Source: a bacterium (GTDB taxonomy: Bacteria; Zhuqueibacterota; Zhuqueibacteria; Residuimicrobiales; Krinioviventaceae). Taken from it: a DNA stretch of 64,000 nucleotides. A program made the translations under genes and the position numbers. The notes under the pieces are model-generated. The model worked only from the letters and a program-made list of their open reading frames with translations. It was not told the origin of the DNA and did no database searches. Every line of letters begins with the position of its first letter. Positions within the stretch are counted from its first letter, which is position 1. The stretch spans positions 2,240,001 through 2,304,000 of the forward strand of contig CAXXMD010000002.1 in assembly GCA_963675755.2 (NCBI GenBank), given 5' to 3'. Below are positions 10,974-24,530 of this stretch, piece by piece.

Positions 10974-11834
10974 CTATTCCTGATTACAATGATCTATAAC
11001 GCGTTTTGCATTCACATAGCATAAATTCTGGTCTTGAATACCTTCAAAACAATACAACTCACGAAAAGTCTGAATCCGGCCATTATGCTTTTCAATTACA
11101 TCCACCAAAGCGCCATGCGGGCAATGCAGACATGTATCACTTTGATTTTCAAAACGGGTAGCCGTTTGCCGGGCTACCAACGCGCGGCTGTTGTTCCATG
11201 TTTGCTTACCGGACCGATACTCAAAATCTACATGCCAGATCTTGTCGAACAATATCCTGCCCTTGTCCAGTGCAAACTTGCCTTTGGCTTCAAACTGGTC
11301 ACCGGCAGCAAATCTTAACCGGTCTTGCTGGTTCGGTGAAATATGAACATAAAAAAAGTCATCAATTCCGGTTTGGCCAATAAATCCATTTTGAATGATC
11401 AACAGATATCCATCAAGTCTTATCTGACCGCCTTTTCCATAGACCTGCTTCTTGAATCTGGGCTTAATTGTTACAATTTCACACCAGATATCCATTTCAC
11501 GATTCTGGTATTCGCTTACCCAATCATTAAATTCTTCAACCTCTTGCAAAAACAACTCAAACTCTTGTTTTTCCACCTTGATGCGAGGTTGATAATTTAT
11601 TTTTTCATCCTCATAGTGCGCGCAGCCTTCACACAATCGCCCAACATAATTATAGCCGCGTACACACGATTTTCCGCGGTCCTTGAGTCTGCACGACCAT
11701 TTAAAAATAATACAGCCCTGGGGATAACATTTTTTCTGCTGCATAACATGATACGCTGACACGCGGTGCTCAAAACGTTCATGTCCTTTGTAATTACATA
11801 TAAATATATCAGTTCGTTTTAATGGATTTCTCAT
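10974..11834 (-). CDS. Cys-rich hypothetical protein
   Basis: 286-aa ORF with Cys clusters at both ends (CYPQGC, CEGC, CLHC); co-oriented with and 31 nt upstream of proS. Confidence 0.75.
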   Translation of the reverse strand: MRNPLKRTDIFICNYKGHERFEHRVSAYHVMQQKKCYPQGCIIFKWSCRLKDRGKSCVRGYNYVGRLCEGCAHYEDEKINYQPRIKVEKQEFELFLQEVEEFNDWVSEYQNREMDIWCEIVTIKPRFKKQVYGKGGQIRLDGYLLIIQNGFIGQTGIDDFFYVHISPNQQDRLRFAAGDQFEAKGKFALDKGRILFDKIWHVDFEYRSGKQTWNNSRALVARQTATRFENQSDTCLHCPHGALVDVIEKHNGRIQTFRELYCFEGIQDQNLCYVNAKRVIDHCNQE

Positions 11835-14345: not shown

Positions 14346-15281
14346 TTATTTTTCATTAGCCCTGGGATGGGCCTGTTTATAAATGCGTTTCAAATGTTCG
14401 GCTGATACATGTGTGTAAATTTCTGTGGTTCCCAAATTTGAATGGCCCAATAATTCTTTAACAGACATTAAATCGGCTCCGGAATCCAACAAATGAGTTG
14501 CAAATGTATGCCGCAATGAATGCGGATGCGCTTTTTCTGTATCTGCTACTTTTTTAATATAATTTTGAACAATTGTTGCGACTTGCTGTCTGGTAAAAGG
14601 CTCCTTTTTTTCTTTAACAAATAAATAGCGGTTATATTCCTGTTTTACAGAGTCTTGCACTTCTATTTGCTGCAAATACCGGCGTATATCCTCAATTACG
14701 ATACCGGGCAGGGGTAAAACTCTTTTTTTATTACCTTTACCTAATACGGTGAGTGTGCCGCTATTCAGGTTCACATCACTTGTTTTAATATTGATCAACT
14801 CACTTACGCGGATACCTGTTGCATAAAACAATTCCAGAATTAAATAATCCCGTAATCCTTCAAAAGTCTCTACATCCGGTAAACTCAATAACGCCTTTAC
14901 TTCTGATTTTGTCATAAAAGACGGCAATTTTTTATCCAGCTTGGGAGAAGCAATATTTGCAACAGGATTCGCCTCAAGCACACCCTTTCTTACCAAATAC
15001 CGGGCAAACATCCGTAACGCGGAAAGTTTTCTACCGGTACTGCGAGCCGAATATTTTTCTTTCAACAGTTCAGACAAAAAACCCCGCACTATAGCTTTTG
15101 TAAAATGTTCAGTTGCAAAAAGTTCGTCTGTAGAATAACGGTCTTTTAAAAAGCTGACATAATGATTTAAATCACGTCCATATGCTGCTATAGTATTTGC
15201 AGAACTGCGTCGTTCAACTTGCAAATGATGTAAAAATTGAGGAATCCAGTTTTCTAATTTTTGTTTTTCCATCGTCATCAC
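14346..15281 (-). CDS. xerC: Tyrosine recombinase XerC
   Basis: YATGIRVSEL, GKGNK, HPHSLRHTFATHLL, LLGH, TEIYTHV; canonical topA-xerC-hpf synteny. Confidence 0.88.
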   Translation of the reverse strand: MMTMEKQKLENWIPQFLHHLQVERRSSANTIAAYGRDLNHYVSFLKDRYSTDELFATEHFTKAIVRGFLSELLKEKYSARSTGRKLSALRMFARYLVRKGVLEANPVANIASPKLDKKLPSFMTKSEVKALLSLPDVETFEGLRDYLILELFYATGIRVSELINIKTSDVNLNSGTLTVLGKGNKKRVLPLPGIVIEDIRRYLQQIEVQDSVKQEYNRYLFVKEKKEPFTRQQVATIVQNYIKKVADTEKAHPHSLRHTFATHLLDSGADLMSVKELLGHSNLGTTEIYTHVSAEHLKRIYKQAHPRANEK

Positions 15282-17455
15282 TTTTCGCTGATCACCGAAA
15301 TAAACTGGTTATCGTACAGATGATTACATTTAGGGCATTGATAGCCTTTGTGGCCCTCTGTCAAATCGTGTTCGACAAGATACCGGTTTCCGCAATTACG
15401 GCATAACATATTTACCGGTTTTTTCCACGCGGCAAAAGAACAATCAGGATACCTGCTGCATCCAAAAAACAATCGTCCTTTTGATTGTCTCTCTACTATT
15501 TTGCCGTCACATCCTTCAACAGGGCAAAAGATGTTGAGTGTGTAGGCTTTGGTAAAATCACATTTGGGATACCGGGTGCAAGCCAGAAACCTTCCATATT
15601 GTCCCTCTCTGACTGTTAGCGGTGCTCCACAAATCTCGCAAATTTCTTTTTCTTCTCTCTCATCAGCCTTATATATATATACGCAGCTTGCCGGGTAATG
15701 TTCACAAATTATTTTATTATCGTCACCGTGTATCAACTTGCCTCCGCACAACGGACAGACACTTTTTCCATCTGCGCCAGATGTTACAGGAGCTTGAACA
15801 GATCCGCCATGTTCAAAAAGTTTGCTGTAACTGTTAATAAACACCTCAACTTTTTGTTTACCAGACGCCACAGTTCGGATCGAATTATCCAGCTGCAAAA
15901 CTATACCTGTATTGATATAGCCTGAATACTTTAATAACAAGGCATTTATGGCATAAAATCCCTTTGCTGAAGGATAAAGTCCGGATCTCTTTCTTTCCAG
16001 CATTTGAATTGCAAAAAGCATGCCCGAATGATATAAATATTCGTAAATAGAACCTGCCCCGGATGCAAGCCACAAATGCAGCATTTCCGATTCAGTATAA
16101 CGGTTTGATATTTCGGACTGATGGGTTTGAATATCAAAATCCACAACCTCAAGTGTTTTACCGGTGTTCCAGGTATCCGGAATTTTCACATCTTCCTGAG
16201 CTTTTGATTTTTCGGAAAGAACCTGTCGAAATCCCCGAAACAGATCTGTTTCATATTCATACTCGCAAATACAAGGATCTTTTTTGTCATCGATTACAGT
16301 TATAGTCCTTGTTTCTGAAACAGATTTGGTCATTTGCGATGCAATATAACGGTGCCAAATCATTGAATAAATTTCGTATTGCGGTTCGGTCAGGTGTTTT
16401 TTGAGCTTGCGTGGAGTCAATCGCAAATCGAGTGGGCGAATAGCCTCCCCTTCCGGATGATGTTTGTTTTGCTTGTAAGCGCGTTGCGGCAGGTAATCTG
16501 TTCCATAATTGTTATAAATATATTCCCTCAACTCTGCAATACTTTCAGGTTTAACATAATCAGAAACAGAGAGAAAGTACGATATCAAACTTATGGGTTC
16601 GTCTCCACCAAGTCTTATACCTTTATACAACACTTGAAGAATTTTAATAACTTTTGACACAGAGTATTTGATCTGGGCATCTGCCAAAAGAGACTGCGTT
16701 GTATAGGGCTTGGGAGGCTGTGTTTGGGTTTGCCGGGTTTGGATGTTTTGAATTTTAAACTCACCATCTTTGATCTGAGAGACCATGGCTTTTGCGAGTT
16801 GAATGTTTCTTACATCCTGTTCTTCTTTTCCAATCTTGATAAGACTAAATTCTAAATTCTTTTTCCCCCTGACTTTGAAACGAATAGATATTTCAAAATG
16901 TCGGTGTGTCTTTTCGCTTTCAACCTCAGTTTCTTTTTCATATAAAAAGCGTAAAAGCAGTGCCTGTTTAATGTGGGTAATTTCTTTAATTCCCTCAACC
17001 GCTTTTAATTTAGAAAATTCATTCTGCAATAAACGGTTTGCCCAATAATCTGCGCATTCCGCATAAAACAAATCAGGGGTAACAGCCTTAATTTTTTTTA
17101 ATTCATTATTCAGATATAGGGCGGTATTCTGATGCATCTTTACTCTGACGATCTTTTTATAACTACCGTCAAACAATAATGCAAGCAATCCCGTTAAAAA
17201 ATCACTATCATCTCCGGGATCTACAACCAGAACAATTGTATGAAAAGGTTTAGCAAAATCTAAAAGAGGTGTGAATATATCCAACGCCGAATCGAGCAAT
17301 CTTACAGATTGGTTCGAAAAATCGACATTCTGTTTTATGAATTCATTACGATCTAATTTTTTCAAGAGCTTGTAATCCCGAAAAACCGTAAATCCATTCA
17401 TTGTAAACAGATCGTAACGGTTTTTAGAATCAACAACAACAAGCTTTTTTTGCAT
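15278..17455 (-). CDS. DNA topoisomerase I (type IA)-like protein with degenerate catalytic motifs and intact C-terminal zinc ribbons
   Basis: PPKPYTT, EAIRP, IWHRYIASQM, RYTE and C4 ribbons are recognisable, but ITYMRTDS reads ISYFLSVS, DPDREGE reads DPGDDSD, and GIGRPSTY reads GAGSIYEY. Confidence 0.85.
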   Translation of the reverse strand: MQKKLVVVDSKNRYDLFTMNGFTVFRDYKLLKKLDRNEFIKQNVDFSNQSVRLLDSALDIFTPLLDFAKPFHTIVLVVDPGDDSDFLTGLLALLFDGSYKKIVRVKMHQNTALYLNNELKKIKAVTPDLFYAECADYWANRLLQNEFSKLKAVEGIKEITHIKQALLLRFLYEKETEVESEKTHRHFEISIRFKVRGKKNLEFSLIKIGKEEQDVRNIQLAKAMVSQIKDGEFKIQNIQTRQTQTQPPKPYTTQSLLADAQIKYSVSKVIKILQVLYKGIRLGGDEPISLISYFLSVSDYVKPESIAELREYIYNNYGTDYLPQRAYKQNKHHPEGEAIRPLDLRLTPRKLKKHLTEPQYEIYSMIWHRYIASQMTKSVSETRTITVIDDKKDPCICEYEYETDLFRGFRQVLSEKSKAQEDVKIPDTWNTGKTLEVVDFDIQTHQSEISNRYTESEMLHLWLASGAGSIYEYLYHSGMLFAIQMLERKRSGLYPSAKGFYAINALLLKYSGYINTGIVLQLDNSIRTVASGKQKVEVFINSYSKLFEHGGSVQAPVTSGADGKSVCPLCGGKLIHGDDNKIICEHYPASCVYIYKADEREEKEICEICGAPLTVREGQYGRFLACTRYPKCDFTKAYTLNIFCPVEGCDGKIVERQSKGRLFFGCSRYPDCSFAAWKKPVNMLCRNCGNRYLVEHDLTEGHKGYQCPKCNHLYDNQFISVISEK

Positions 17456-17961: not shown

Positions 17962-18133
17962 CCAGGTTCACTCCGCGTGCTTGTTTCATTATCCGAATAT
18001 ACACTTTTTTCATACAAATGCAAGTGATTGTTCTGGCATTTTTTCATCAACAACAGAACGATCACAAGCAATCGCATAAAAAGCAATATTTCAATCTTGA
18101 CCTTTGTGTATCAGTAACACAAATTTATTCTCA

Positions 18134-21100
18134 TTAATTGCCTTTACCACAGCAATTTTTATATTTTTTCCCACTTCCACAGGGACAAGGCTCATTTCTA
18201 CCAACTTTATTGGTATTAATCACCTGACGCTGCTTACCCGCCGGACGTCCCGGTGTGGGTTGGGCCTGTGCTTTACCCTTGGGTGGAGCCATTACCTGTT
18301 TAAACAACTCTACCTGAGAATGAGATGTAGATACCTTTTGCGGTTCGGCACGTCTCATTTCCCGTTCTTCAAGCTCACCACCAACATCCAGTACGCGGAA
18401 AAGAGTGCTTACAATATCTCTGTTTGTACTGTCAATCATTTTTACAAACATTTTGTAAGCTTCGCTCTTGTACTCAATCAATGGATCTTTTTGGCCATAA
18501 CCGCGCAATCCAATACCTTCACGCAGTTCATCAACACCACTCAAATGCTGACGCCAGTTCTCATCAATTTTTTCAAGTATATAATACCGCTCGTATCTGG
18601 CTACCATAGATTCGCCAATCTCATCTACACGGCGTCGGTAAATACTTTGTGCCCAACTACTCAGAATATTCATCACCGTATTGGGATCCATTGCCTCACC
18701 ACTTTCATCGTGCAGGCGTGGCGATTGTCTGAATACCAGACGGCATTCCGATTCCAAACGACGAATCTGGGTAGCATCAAGATCATCATTATTACCCAGC
18801 ACACCGCTGATCATCTGATAGATTGTATCATCGATCATGGTTAAAACAGAATCAAAAACAATATCTGTACTGAGCCGTTCCTGATGGTAACGCTCAACCC
18901 GGTCTGCATAGGTTTTATAGAAACTCAAACCCCATGCAACCAGTTCTTCTCGATACGAGTTTAATGTTTCACGTTCACGAGATGCCGGCAGAATCTTGTC
19001 CGGTTTTCCCATAAACATATTCTGAAAACTTGATGCCAGTAGCTGTTGTGTTGATTCGGCATCTTTGTTTTCTTTGATAACATTTTCAAACCTTGCAATA
19101 ATAGAAGATTCTATCAATTCTTCAATGGATGTATTGGCAAGTAACAATTGGTTATATACGGAAATATTTTCTCGTAAATGCTCCAAATAGGTATTTCTTG
19201 CCCATCGCATTGTCTGGTTAACAAGATCAGGCCAGTCTTTCAAGGCTTCAGCAGGTTCAAATGCTTTACCAAATACACCCTGCAAAAACTCTGCCTGTTT
19301 TCCTTCCAGTTCTAAAACATCCCGGCTGTGGTAAGCAGATGCCTGAATAAAACTGTGTTCAACTATTGCATTAATATATTGTACAGATGAAAAATAGCCC
19401 AGAATACGGTTACGATACAACATTTCATCCTTGGCGGTAATTGCCAGACCGTCAAGCCATTCCTGAACTTTTTCAATTACTTTTTCTCGTCGAATGGTAC
19501 GCATCTCATTTTCACCAATGGGCGGACGCTGCATAAATATCTTTTCAAGATCACTTAAAAAGTTCTCTGAATTCCAGGTTGCCGCTGGCGCATCAATTGG
19601 TAAATGACGATTAACCAAACCATTTACATAAATTTCCAGAAAAGTGTTCAACGGAATGGTTTTAAAAAGAATAAGGTCTATTGCTTTTTGCCCGTTTTCT
19701 ACCTGAGAATTATAAACAGATGCAGCCCATTCTTTCAATTTTGATTCAAAAGCATCAGCAGTATCAATATTGCTATTCTCAAGCCAATCTGGTTTTTGCT
19801 CAAAAATACGCTCCATTTCATAACCAATGCCTTCAATATTCCATTTTGAAATATCTCGGGTACCAGCGTTATGCAGTCTTATTTTCAACAATACCAGCTC
19901 ATCTATAATATCTTGAATATTACAATACCCGGTAATACGGTGACGTTCCTGCATTTGATAGAGGTGGCGCTGTTCTTTCAACTTTTCATCAACCCAGGTT
20001 CTCAAAGTCTCCCGAACACCACTAACATCCTGGCTTTCAAGTTCAGATTTGGTAAAATCAGGTTCTGCACCAAAATACCGTTTCAGATTTTCAAACAATT
20101 CATCCAGTTTCCAGGTTGAACGATCATCTTCTTCATCAATAAAGCGTTTGATCTTGGCTTCTACAAAATCTTCCGGCTGTGCAAAACCCAGCAGGTTTTG
20201 TCGTCGTTTATATATAATCTTTCTTTGTTCATTCAATACGTCATCATAATCCAGCAAATGCTTACGGATTTCAAAGTTGCGTTCTTCAACTTTTTTCTGA
20301 GCGCGTTCAATGGATTTTGTGATCATAGAGTGCTCAATGCGCTCTCCCTCATCCATACTGCCTAAACGACTCATAATATTTGTAATGCGGTCAGAACCAA
20401 ACAGACGCATGAGATCATCTTCCAATGACAGATAAAAACGTGAAGAACCCGGGTCTCCCTGACGTCCTGCACGACCACGTAACTGCCGGTCAATTCGACG
20501 GGCTTCGTGTTTTTCTGAACCAATGATCTGCAAACCACCTTTTTCAATCACATCTCTGGTAAGCTTGATATCCGTACCACGACCCGCCATATTGGTCGCA
20601 ATAGTTATAGATCCCGGTAGACCCGCTTTGGCAACAATTTCAGCTTCGTTTTTATGATACTTGGCATTCAATACCGTATGAAAGCGTCCCGATTCCAGCT
20701 CTTTAGTAACATCACCCTTTTTCAGCCAGTTGGCAACAGGAATACCGCGCTGGGTAAACAAATTACTCAGATGCTGAGAAACATCAACTGAAACCGTACC
20801 AATCAGAACCGGTAGTCCTTTTTCATGATACTCTATGGTATCTTTAATGATTGCATCATACTTTTCAGCCTTTGTTCGATAGATCACATCATTCATATCA
20901 TCACGAATAACCGGTCTATTGGTTGGTGCAACAATAACATCCAGCTTATAAGTGCTGTAAAATTCCTGCGCTTCGGTTTCGGCGGTACCGGTCATACCTG
21001 CCAGCTTATTATATAATCTAAAGAAATTCTGCAAAGTAATGGTAGCCAGTGTCTGACTTTCGGCCTGTACTTCAACACCTTCTTTGGCTTCCAACGCTTC

Positions 21101-24100
21101 GTGCAATCCGTCACTGAAACGGCGTCCCGGCATTAAACGACCGGTAAACTGGTCAACAATCATAACCGCTTTATTTCCACGTTTTGCACCGGTACGTCTT
21201 AATTCATTATCTTCCACAGCCTTGACCACATATTCAACATCGTTATGATAAAGGGTATATGCACGCAGCAACTGGGATATATTTTGAACGCGTTCTTCCA
21301 CGCGGTTATAATCCTGCCAGATCTTGTCACGCTGCTGTTCCAGCATTACACGTGGACGTCTCTCAAAATGGATGCGGAACCAGTGTTCAATCTCTTCATT
21401 ACGCATAACAAAATTCGGCATATGGGCATTAGACAGCAATTCTGTCATCTCGCGATCATCCAAAACAACATGGCGTGAACGCAAATGCGCTTTTTCTTTA
21501 GGAAGCAGTCCCTGAAGCTCTGCCCGACTGCCGGCTTTTTTAGTGCTCAACTGCATAATCTCATCGCGAAAACTCTGATACTCATCCCGGTAATTGAAAT
21601 AAGGCAATCCGCCAATCAACAATGTACGGGCGGCTTTTTCAATACCCTTGGGCATTTTGTTTTCATCCAAAACAAATAGAGCATCAATATCTACATTCGG
21701 GTCACTGGCAGCTTCTTTTAATTTATCCACAACCTGACTACGTTCAAAAAACAGTCCTTGTAGATTCTTGCGGCCGTTTTCGGTTAATCCTGAAATATTA
21801 ACAGTCGTCAATACCGGGTCTTCGGGATGCAGGGTACCACTAAACTGGAAATACCTGCGAAGCCAGCGTTGACGTTCTGTAAGGGTTTGATCCGTATCTG
21901 CCAGGTTTGTAAAGATCATCTGTATTGTATTATTGAGGCGTTCTACCTCTTCAAACCGACGAGAAGCACTGATTATCTCTGCGGGCAAGTTGAATTTTTC
22001 CTGTAGATGTGCATCCAGCTTTAACTTGTTTGACAGTTCATTTTTACCGGTGTCACGGCTCCAGGATTTAATTTCTTTATCTACATCGGCAAAGCTCGCG
22101 CCCATCAGGCGTTCCAATTCAGCGTCTGCTAATCCGGATACACGTCCATCCGCGTCAGTTTTAAAAATAGCCTCAGGTTTATCTTTATAATCACCCAGGT
22201 TTTTTTCAAAATGTCGTATTACGGCTTTACTTTCACTGCTGAAATTAGAAAGACATTCAACACCCAAAGCGGTAATGTCAAACCTGCTGGTTTCCATAAC
22301 ATAAAAATCATTGTTTGCAGGGTCTTCAAGTGTTTGAATATGTTCATACAGTGATGTTACATCTTTATCCATATCTTCTACAGCAAGAACATGAGCAGAA
22401 TAATCATAATCTGCCTGGTTTAGGGTATCATCCAACTGTTTTTGGATCTGCTGGTCACGTTCTTCAACCAGGGTTCTGTCAGGCAGTACATACAGATCAG
22501 GATTACCGCCAAGCAGAGCAATACGGCCTTTTTCTGTTATCTGATTTAAAACAGCACCATTGTCTTTAAACTCGAAATATTCCTGTTTAATGTTTTCAAT
22601 AGTGGTCACATCCTGTGTTGTTGCTGGATTTAAAAGTGCAATCAATCCATTAACAGTAGGCAGTAGCATAGGATCACCAGATTTTTGCATTGCCAATACC
22701 GCCAGCTTGCCTTCTTCCGTCAAACCGGTGATTGCGCCAAACTGTTTTTCTGTTTCAAAAAAAACATCGGTCAATTCTCTTCTTCTGTCAACAAGCGGAC
22801 GTTTCATAACCGGCTCAGCATCTACGTCTGCTTCTTCACGTACCATATCTAAAAGCTTTACAAAGGCGTCTACAATGGATTCGTCATACTTTCCGTTTGC
22901 ATTTGATTTCAGATAATCAATACCTGCCGGGGCCATACTATTCACAGCCCGATCCATCTTTTTTGTCATATCGTAAAATTGACGCCAGGCAGAGGCCTTG
23001 TCGCCTTTATTGTTTTGCAAACGTGTATTAACTTCTTCAGGCAAATCGTTCAATTGAAGAGCAAGCTGTTCAATGGGTTCAAACTCAGACTCGGCAACTC
23101 CGGATTGTATACCAATAAGGGCAGCTTTACCCGCAAGGGTCAGGCCATTACAGGTGCCTGTAATGGAATCATGTGTAAAATAGATGGAGCGGTTCTTTTG
23201 CTCACTGAGCTTTTCAAGCGTTGCGCTCAATTCATCCAGCTTTTGAATTTTATGTACAATATCCTGATCACGACCACCCGAGAGGAATATACGTCCCTTT
23301 TCGGTAATGTCTATAACATGGCTTTTTTCGTCAATGGTAAAATACAAATCGGCATCAATTTCACCCATTTGCTTATTAACTTCATATTGGCCCTGAATTC
23401 GCTCAATCAATTTCTTGACCCAGAATTCCGAAGTCAACAGTTCAAGCAGTTCCTTGTTTTTAGGATCTCCACGATGTACCTGAAGGATCTTGATACCTGC
23501 CTGCTCTTCTTCATTCTCGAGCAATTCTTTGCCTTCCCGCAACAGTTGCTGTACCAGTTCGTTTTGTCGTTTTGCCAGGTTCTCTACAGTGGGTTTTAAT
23601 TCTTTGTAAATATTCTTGGGTGCGCCAACAGCTCCCGAGATAATAAGCGGGGTTCTGGCTTCATCAATTAAAACACTGTCCACCTCATCCACAATTGCGT
23701 AATGTAATGGACGCTGAACAACAGACCAGACATCCTGAGCCATATTATCACGCAAATAATCAAAACCAAACTCGTTGTTGGTACCATACGTAATATCGGC
23801 ATGATATGCCGCGCGGCGTTCTTCAGGAGATTGATCTCCAAAAATTGCGGCTACGGTTAATCCCAAAAATTTGTAAATCTCGCCCATCCATTCACAGTCA
23901 CGTTGGGCCAGATAATCATTAACAGTGATAAGATGCACACCCTTGCCTTCTAACGCATTCAGATACAAAGGCATAGAGGCTACAAGGGTTTTACCTTCAC
24001 CCGTTGCCATTTCTGCTATTTTTCCTGAATGCAGAATCATACCACCCAATATCTGCACGTCATAAGGGATCATGTCCCATTCTATCTCCTGCCCTCGTAC

Positions 24101-24364
24101 AATCCATTTTTTACCACGCAGCCGTCTACATGTATCCTTGACAACAGCAAAGGCCTCGGGCAAAATATCATCAAGAGTTTCCCCCATACGTAATCTATAT
24201 TTAAATTCGTTGGTTTTCGCTTTTAACTCATCATCAGACAAATGCTCATATTCTTTAGCATATTCATTCACCGTACCAACTAGTGGTTCTAGCCGTTTAA
24301 CTTCACGTTCGGTGCTTGTGCCTCCCATAACCTTGGAAAGCATTTTTTCAATAGACTTTAACAT
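18134..24364 (-). CDS. secA: Preprotein translocase ATPase SecA, giant form (2076 aa) with repeat-expanded PPXD and helical wing
   Basis: [126 protein letters not shown]. Confidence 0.97.
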
Positions 24365-24530
24365 TTACAAAATCCTCGTTTATCAAATCTATAATAATTA
24401 TACCGGCAATACTTATATGTATACAAACTACACAAGTTTCAAATTTAATGGATTTTAGGCTAAAAATCCAGCAAATAAATCACGCCGGCATTATTAAAAT
24501 TGGCTGTTATCAAATTAGAGCATGGTGGGG

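Follow-up and report, generated by a model that had tools for sequence, protein, structure and literature searches.

A stretch of 64,000 nucleotides (hereafter the window: positions 2,240,001 to 2,304,000 of contig CAXXMD010000002.1, assembly GCA_963675755.2) from a bacterium of the order Residuimicrobiales (phylum Zhuqueibacterota) was found to carry a secA gene coding for a protein of 2076 amino acids (aa). The motor of this giant SecA is ordinary, while its preprotein cross-linking domain (PPXD) and its helical wing domain (HWD) have each been enlarged into a long arm. The best overall explanation, to which we give a probability of about 0.7, is that the protein is the sole housekeeping SecA of its lineage, that its arms consist of SecA's own modules, and that these arms likely serve for docking at the preprotein clamp. 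Identity and anatomy are nearly certain: the giant is the only housekeeping SecA ATPase of an order-level lineage, and its arms are built from SecA's own modules. Its database relatives are named ‘candidate division KSB1 bacterium’, and we refer to the family as KSB1-type.

An ordinary motor in a giant protein

The gene lies at 18134..24364 on the minus strand, to which all coordinates of its domains refer. It is a single open reading frame (ORF) with an ATG start and no interruption, coding for 2076 aa plus the stop codon, and its GC content is even (0.37-0.44). Five motifs were located in the translation: Walker A (MATGEGKT, residues 119-126), DEVD (residues 226-229), the conserved arginine-rich motif of the second nucleotide-binding domain (NBD2, residues 1297-1306), the tip of the two-helix finger (residues 1953-1962) and SEC-C (residues 2060-2072). 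Pfam recognised SecA_DEAD, SecA_PP_bind, P-loop_SecA, SecA_SW and SEC-C. NBD1 and NBD2 were identified with PF07517 (E 2.2e-123) and PF21090 (E 2.9e-68), and the scaffold helix, wing and two-helix finger with SecA_SW (PF07516, E 3.2e-58), which matched in two stretches. The SecA_DEAD match was split around the PPXD, placing this domain within NBD1 as usual and showing it expanded to about 875 aa; SecA_PP_bind (PF01043) matched only with its C-terminal half (residues 1021-1092, profile positions 53-110). The initial annotation had described an uninterrupted frame of 2076 aa with all motor motifs in place, and the ORF, the Pfam matches and the motif positions agree with it.

The domains follow one another in the order known from SecA. 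The N-terminal part of NBD1, which holds Walker A and DEVD, was assigned from Pfam and phmmer to residues 1-232 (23669..24364). It is followed by the expanded PPXD at residues about 233-1107 (21044..23668), the C-terminal end of NBD1 together with NBD2 at residues about 1108-1341 (20342..21043; Pfam and phmmer), and the long helix of the helical scaffold domain at residues about 1342-1392 (20189..20341), which was aligned to E. coli SecA. The HWD array covers residues 1393-1928 (18581..20188), the IRA1/two-helix-finger region residues 1929-1995 (18380..18580; Pfam and phmmer), the C-terminal linker residues 1996-2055 (18200..18379) and the zinc-binding SEC-C motif residues 2056-2074 (18143..18199; PF02810, E 8.7e-09). 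PDB matches to C-terminal peptides of SecA (phmmer) also support the SEC-C assignment.

Two general SecA models of NCBIfam scored above their cut-offs, PRK12904 with 972.5 bits (cut-off 814) and TIGR00963 with 910 (cut-off 800). Since its motor is canonical, the protein should drive preproteins through an ordinary, single SecYEG. The source genome (6.48 Mb, 3 contigs, 98% complete) contains one secA, the giant one, and a single secY, whose open frame measures 453 aa. Trigger factor is present in this genome, and SecB was not found in it. The neighbours of secA encode NusB, a class IV aminotransferase, RecJ, a CT398-like coiled-coil protein, DUF494/Smg, a topoisomerase and an XerC-type recombinase, and no secA2/secY2 cluster was found around the gene. 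These neighbours, together with the single copies of secA and secY, bear out the housekeeping setting, apart from any accessory secA2/secY2 cluster, that had been proposed at first.

One might suppose that the giant is instead a SecA2-type accessory ATPase reserved for a small set of special substrates. We consider this very improbable, because the source genome has a single secA and a single secY, the gene context is of the housekeeping kind, neither the SEC-C tail nor any motor motif is missing, and every SecA2 model remained below its cut-off (TIGR03714, 645.8 of 930; TIGR04221, 514.4 of 725; TIGR04397, 772.8 of 1085; NF012136, 550.7 of 1100); the subfamily model PRK09200 was below its cut-off as well. 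What speaks for an accessory role is that a second, divergent SecA of 808-856 aa does occur in two genomes of the order (G010 and G013) and in four of other orders (G045, G048, G067 and G068), so that SecA paralogy exists within the class. The paralogues of G010 (L048, G010:C5) and G013 (L050, G013:C166) lack SEC-C and share 62% identity, against about 40% with other SecAs, and the similar frames in the four genomes of other orders measure 810-827 aa.

The PPXD and HWD arrays

The extra residues are confined to two domains. When aligned with E. coli SecA (6s0k_h) by phmmer, residues 6-288, 1028-1434 and 1902-1991 found counterparts, and residues about 290-1027 in the PPXD and about 1435-1901 in the HWD did not. 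According to the alignment offsets, the PPXD measures about 875 aa here versus about 158 aa in E. coli. A second comparison set was made up of twelve sister-order SecAs (1035-1120 aa). The segments without a sister-order counterpart were 363-618, 632-801, 810-822, 832-1008 and 1050-1063 in the PPXD and 1393-1445, 1457-1485 and 1527-1884 in the HWD region; residues 1210-1228 in NBD2 also had none. We call residues 363-1008 (21341..23278) insert A; three short islands within it (619-631, 802-809 and 823-831) could be matched to the sister-order SecAs. Both comparisons confirm the early observation that roughly 1,000 added residues are restricted to the PPXD and HWD.

We found that the PPXD contains nine beta-hairpin-and-helix units, at residues 338-367, 392-422, 460-493, 532-566, 593-623, 684-711, 730-760, 835-875 and 893-922, of which units 2-9 lie in insert A. 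Canonical and sister-order SecAs have a single such unit. The nine sequences stand in register and share the motif [YF]F..[DE]...h..[IL][TS]..G...L. The profile-profile comparison (hhalign) was built on an alignment of 43 orthologues. In it, residues 341-389, the counterpart of the ‘hfsvdeksrq’ stretch of E. coli SecA, matched downstream copies with up to 94% probability, and the unit matrix connected units 1-6 and 8 at 66-90%. When windows of the PPXD region were compared with the HWD region as a control, no match reached 40%.

The HWD array comprises six HWD-like units of about 89 aa with sequences in register, at residues about 1401-1482, 1483-1571, 1572-1655, 1656-1746, 1747-1839 and 1840-1928. 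The self-scan of this region gave periods of about 89 and about 178 aa, with matches such as 1584-1659 to 1405-1482 (97.9%, E 3.4e-13) and 1541-1617 to 1716-1791 (96.1%). The canonical HWD profile of the sister orders matched six in-register places, with probabilities of 96.9, 93.6, 87.1, 1.6, 0.5 and 86.3%, and the unit matrix linked units 1, 2, 3, 4 and 6 at 86-98%. A piece of NBD2 compared with the PPXD or HWD region as a control gave a probability of 0.2%. Since the 178-aa period is the dominant one, the array probably arose by triplication of a block of two wing units.

The predicted structures agree with this division into units. AlphaFold2 was run on 54-row alignments in two halves, residues 1-1105 and 1101-2076, which reached a mean predicted local distance difference test (pLDDT) score of 82.6 and 78.5, respectively. 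In the first half, DSSP assigned a strand-strand-helix element to each PPXD unit, at residues 342-361, 396-416, 464-487, 536-560, 597-617, 688-705, 734-754, 839-869 and 897-916. One to three helices follow each unit, and the pLDDT is mostly 80-95 over residues 250-1040. In the second half, the HWD array is predicted as all-helical (pLDDT 88-97), the long scaffold helix is visible (model residues 246-291), and the C-terminal linker (residues 1996-2052, model residues 896-952) has a pLDDT below 50. A model of SecA alone, as had been proposed at the outset, thus yields nine strand-strand-helix units and a helical wing array. A Foldseek search of the PDB with both half-models returned only SecA (E 1e-16 to 1e-18), followed by generic helicases.

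We searched for foreign material in the inserts. No Pfam domain was found in insert A, and three insert fragments searched with E up to 10 gave only sub-threshold chance matches and one SecA_SW stretch. Insert A had 6 matches among 1.84 billion protein representatives. Five were the giant KSB1-type SecA itself; the sixth, P0200 (E 1.5e-6), which has 3076 aa with Big-domain repeats and ends in a Por secretion tail, was judged spurious. A search of the ESM Atlas with insert A gave no usable match. By these sequence comparisons, insert A appears to have no relatives among the 1.84 billion representatives outside the giant KSB1-type SecA family. The sequence profiles and the models show that the roughly 1,050 extra residues are diverged copies of SecA's own PPXD unit and HWD. 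The initial annotation had thought of built-in arms acting as chaperone, tether or clamp, and the self-scans, the canonical profiles and the unit matrices do not agree with a foreign origin. Self-BLASTP of the protein found no internal repeats, and searches for tandem and direct repeats at the DNA level found nothing relevant. Considering that the copies were detectable only with profiles, the duplications must be ancient.

Conservation of the giant form and giant SecAs elsewhere

The giant form was then considered across the order. An uninterrupted secA frame of 2060-2166 aa was present in 34 of 41 genomes, representing 5 families and 21 genera, and the split SecA_DEAD signature was present in 40 of the 41. 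In the six genomes with the signature and a broken frame, the break corresponded to contig ends (G015, G032 and G036), to a gene lying on two contigs (G009 and G028) or to a frameshift (G010); the gene of G009 also carries one TAG. The remaining genome, G016 (78% complete), had a short SecA paralogue only. A one-contig genome of the source genus has a secA of identical length. In G010 (L047, G010:C1:76000-83500) a frameshift (frames 3 and 1) breaks the giant gene between residues about 770 and 799, and the rest is intact, with 54-55% identity; either the giant form may be dispensable in this organism or the frameshift may be a sequencing error. We also observed in G004 (6% contamination; L049, G004:C23:838000-842000) a 934-aa SecA with SEC-C beside a secA of 2089 aa. 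It is about 50% identical to sister-order SecAs; either it lies on a contaminant contig or the genome has a second copy of the canonical kind.

Among 43 database orthologues (2049-2111 aa, 40-55% identity over insert A), the identity was 0.79-0.90 over residues 51-250 and 0.69-0.90 over the end of NBD1 and NBD2. The inserts evolve faster: their identity to the window SecA was 0.25-0.45, versus 0.8-0.9 in the core. Within them are conserved islands at residues 301-400 and 601-650 (0.64-0.78), and PPXD unit 5 with its surroundings (residues 601-650) reaches 0.74. Across the order, the two arrays keep a constant number of units, evolve under purifying selection and, by the models, are folded.

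These data also bear on whether the gene is real. Apart from its unusual length, nothing suggests an artefact, that is, a misassembled or chimeric ORF, or intein-like or mobile inserts that are removed after translation. In Logan contigs of two sequencing runs of one sample, secA was covered with 0 differences and a contig break only at 18513-18542; these two runs possibly represent the source sample and are then not independent. A third run, from another study, is independent, and its contigs are colinear with the window at 18000-20798 (152 substitutions) and 20769-24500 (339 substitutions), with their only indels outside the ORF, at 18079 and 24392. Many short joints with sides of 22-59 letters appeared in the mapping (likeness threshold 85); we read these as stretches of conserved SecA sequence from other members of the metagenomes and not as alternative junctions. 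No intein, Hint or homing endonuclease domain was found by Pfam in the whole protein or, with E up to 10, in the three insert fragments. Because contigs of an independent study are colinear and 34 of 41 relatives, the one-contig genome included, have full-length genes, misassembly was rejected; the initial annotation had suggested read mapping across the gene as a check, and the contig mapping revealed none. With the even GC content and the derivation of the inserts from SecA modules added, an artefact of either kind is practically negligible as an explanation.

Outside the order, SecA is of normal size. In the class sample, a SecA match was present in 76 of 82 genomes beyond the order and none exceeded 1137 aa. 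The class-sample counts for SecA and SecY include two unpublished genomes, G085 (SecA of 1103 aa, SecY frame of 498) and G116 (a partial SecA frame of 677 aa), and without them the SecA count is 0 of 74; none of our conclusions rests on these two. In the phylum sample, all 6 genomes of the order had a SecA of 2062-2100 aa, versus at most 1156 aa in 53 other genomes with a match, and SecAs of sister orders and other classes of the phylum measured 1010-1156 aa. A core-domain tree (62 rows, 667 columns; IQ-TREE quick search under LG+G4, with Shimodaira-Hasegawa-like approximate likelihood ratio test [SH-aLRT] support only) placed the 21 giant KSB1-type rows in one clade (SH-aLRT 100, stem length 0.38) adjoining the sister-order and Bacteroidales-type SecAs. 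Since the giants form one clade and SecA is of normal size outside the order, the expansion is a derived character of the order.

The giant size itself is not unique. We searched for proteins of 1839-5000 aa containing SecA NBD2 (E <=1e-10) and found at least 270 database clusters of SecA of at least 1839 aa, and 120 giant sequences were examined for the site of their inserts. The KSB1 type, expanded in both PPXD and HWD, accounted for 44 of the 120. In 43, the HWD site alone carried an insert (median span 1248 aa); there were inserts in NBD2 and at the HWD site in 26, and an N-terminal insert of about 870 aa combined with an HWD-site insert in 6; 1 was unclassifiable. The HWD site was expanded in all 119 classified giants, while the PPXD was expanded only in the KSB1 type. 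Some of the others carry the names ‘Anaerolineae bacterium’ or ‘Planctomycetota bacterium’ and form separate clades in the core tree. The HWD site is thus a hot spot at which huge insertions recur, and multiplication of the PPXD is peculiar to the KSB1-type family. The lineage-specific motor of the initial annotation is upheld in part: in the phylum sample giant size is restricted to this order, yet such a size is not unique, as the Anaerolineae- and Planctomycetota-type giants are independent.

The other giants differ in the make-up of their inserts. Anaerolineae-type giants (P0130-P0163 and relatives, 1998-2221 aa) have a normal PPXD and an HWD-site span of about 1250 aa, which in P0130 (residues about 1090-1950), for example, contains roughly thirteen tandem repeats of about 63 aa with self-matches up to 99.2% (hhalign); neither a Pfam domain nor an HWD profile match was found in this insert. 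Planctomycetota-type giants (P0127, P0128, P0129, P0135, P0165 and P0170; 2510-2621 aa) have about 870 extra residues before the Walker A region and an HWD-site span of about 770 aa. Multiplication of the HWD as a general rule for giant SecAs was rejected, because the HWD-site inserts of other families gave no HWD profile match.

The readiness of the HWD site to take up very different huge inserts in 119 of 119 classified giants, together with the much faster evolution of the inserts relative to the core, might suggest tolerated bloat, in which permissive surface loops keep duplicated modules without any specific function; mycobacterial SecA2 (4uaq) is moreover said to lack the HWD, so that this domain would be dispensable in some SecAs. 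Nevertheless, about 1,050 residues have been kept in frame and at near-constant length in 34 of 41 genomes from 5 families and 21 genera, the units are positionally conserved and predicted to be folded (AlphaFold2), and a conserved island of 0.74 identity (residues 601-650) lies inside the insert. Bloat is therefore, in our estimation, an improbable account.

Apart from secA, two further features of the window were recorded. A 725-aa topoisomerase-like protein (15278-17455, minus strand) matches Topoisom_bac at residues 164-540 and has zinc ribbons, and its first 160 residues gave no Toprim match at E <=1e-5. A Cys/His-rich ORF of 286 aa (10974-11834, minus strand) lies between genes for a putative prolyl-tRNA synthetase and a putative PTS-like protein (phosphotransferase system), names that were read from the translations.

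Role of the arms and comparison with known systems

NBD1, NBD2, the scaffold helix, the two-helix finger and the SEC-C tail are canonical, and ATP-driven translocation through SecYEG would proceed as usual, the arms leaving the translocation chemistry unchanged. Serial, ancient duplication of SecA's own parts has turned two accessory domains into multi-module arms, which may give unfolded clients, or partners specific to the lineage, a larger surface to dock on at the clamp entrance. The wing domain of canonical SecA borders the same groove as the PPXD clamp. As summarised in a review, signal sequences bind to the PPXD of canonical SecA, and the clamp forms when this domain swings. Because these two domains flank the preprotein clamp and groove, docking of clients or partners is the likely use of arms that extend them; taken on its own, this role is put forward tentatively. 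The initial annotation had spoken of a re-engineered Sec motor and a new system. A lineage-wide, altered SecA does stand; what we found is the ordinary motor, two of whose own domains have been multiplied, and not a new system.

Genomes of the order and those outside it alike have a single SecY, whose size does not differ between them, and a co-expansion of SecY was therefore rejected. SecB had no match in 55 class genomes outside the order; within the order 4 of 26 genomes gave matches, of which two scored slightly above the 26-bit cut-off and two fell short of it. We rejected the idea that the expansion of SecA compensates for a loss of SecB, and with it the link to SecB loss anticipated earlier, because SecB was not found across the class whatever the size of SecA; trigger factor is present.

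A different use of the arms can be imagined, in which they are rigid repeat rods that hold SecA in place relative to the membrane, to the ribosome or to a lineage-specific partner, or that bring about oligomerisation. The HWD array is predicted with very high confidence as all-helical, as scaffolds typically are, the number of repeats does not vary within the order, and independent giants in other phyla also carry repeats at the HWD site (about 13 of about 63 aa in the Anaerolineae type). However, no partner was found, the size of SecY is unchanged, and the PPXD units copy an element of a domain that faces the substrate. We regard scaffolding as rather unlikely, and docking at the clamp as the preferred reading. 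A broader conjecture, to which we lend little weight, is that the housekeeping SecA became a giant separately in three or more bacterial lineages, each time with a repeat-rich arm at the HWD site and here with a second arm in the PPXD, and that such arms are platforms that hold clients or recruit partners.

Several observations weigh against the explanation that we favour. The best-scoring NCBIfam model, the Bacteroidota-type NF009536 (PRK12901), gave 1096.8 bits in five stretches, under its curated cut-off of 1493. PPXD units 7 and 9 were linked solely to each other (41-50%, hhalign), the canonical HWD profile gave only 1.6% and 0.5% on HWD units 4 and 5, and HWD unit 5 reached only 30% in the unit matrix. 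These four units were accepted because of their secondary-structure pattern, their register and the offset matches in the self-scan of the HWD region. The predicted template modelling scores of the two half-models are low (0.58 for residues 1-1105 and 0.64 for residues 1101-2076), which bears on the arrangement of the units. The absence of a correlation between SecB loss and expansion removes one argument for a built-in chaperone, and G010 has a normal-size SecA paralogue besides its frameshifted giant gene.

SecA is among the best-studied motors, yet the role of the HWD and that of the PPXD bulb beyond clamp formation are still poorly understood. The giant family amounts to a natural experiment, in which the HWD is multiplied six-fold and the PPXD nine-fold, and the motor, SecY and the rest of the pathway are ordinary. 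It offers a handle on what the HWD and PPXD bind, on how much mass a swinging PPXD can carry and on why the HWD site attracts huge insertions time and again in phyla that are not related. If the arms are functional, they would represent an unrecognised mode of Sec export, in which the motor brings its own holdase or adaptor arms and the HWD is an evolvable docking site. Giant SecAs are already in public databases, where they have gone unremarked: several are labelled ‘hypothetical’, ‘SEC-C domain-containing’ or ‘DEAD/DEAH box helicase’, and the PRK12901 cut-off is missed. That both domains flanking the clamp were multiplied from SecA's own modules would surprise Sec specialists. The initial annotation knew of no description of this architecture, and within the literature searched, from which subscription journals were largely absent, we likewise found no description of a SecA of about 2000 aa.

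Compared with canonical SecA of E. coli and B. subtilis (6s0k, 2fsf, 1tf2 and 1m6n), the giant shares domain order and motifs (phmmer E about 1e-206). The solved canonical chains measure 780-997 aa versus 2076 aa, and their one PPXD hairpin-helix unit is replaced here by nine, in addition to a six-unit HWD of about 535 aa. The Bacteroidota-type long SecA (PRK12901, 1118 positions) is the nearest model, yet the giant stays below its cut-off. Sister-order SecAs share a helical addition at the start of the PPXD, to which residues 252-337 of the giant were aligned, but they have one hairpin-helix unit and one HWD. They also carry, on the N-terminal side of NBD1, about 45 residues that are missing from the giant (L014-L025; offset 275 versus 230), and from this offset it follows that the giant either lost or never gained a small NBD1 insert.

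Order-level conserved inserts in a housekeeping SecA have been described in thermophiles, where they measure 50 aa in Thermotogales and Aquificales and 76 aa in Thermales, with independent origins in unrelated groups proposed (PMC7023208). These are the largest lineage-specific SecA inserts that we found described. The inserts of the giant exceed them about tenfold, are situated in the PPXD and HWD and are duplicated SecA modules. The Anaerolineae-type and Planctomycetota-type giants and P0124 (2023 aa), for which our literature searches gave no publication, resemble the giant of the window in having about 2000 aa or more, an intact motor and an insert at the HWD site, which in the Anaerolineae type is a tandem repeat array, as is the HWD of the KSB1 type; they differ in that their PPXD is normal, most of them lack SEC-C and they belong to separate clades. 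Finally, mycobacterial SecA2 (4uaq) is likewise an ATPase of the SecA family, but it is an accessory paralogue, whereas the giant is the sole SecA; its HWD is reportedly absent, and the two proteins would thus mark the opposite extremes of this domain.

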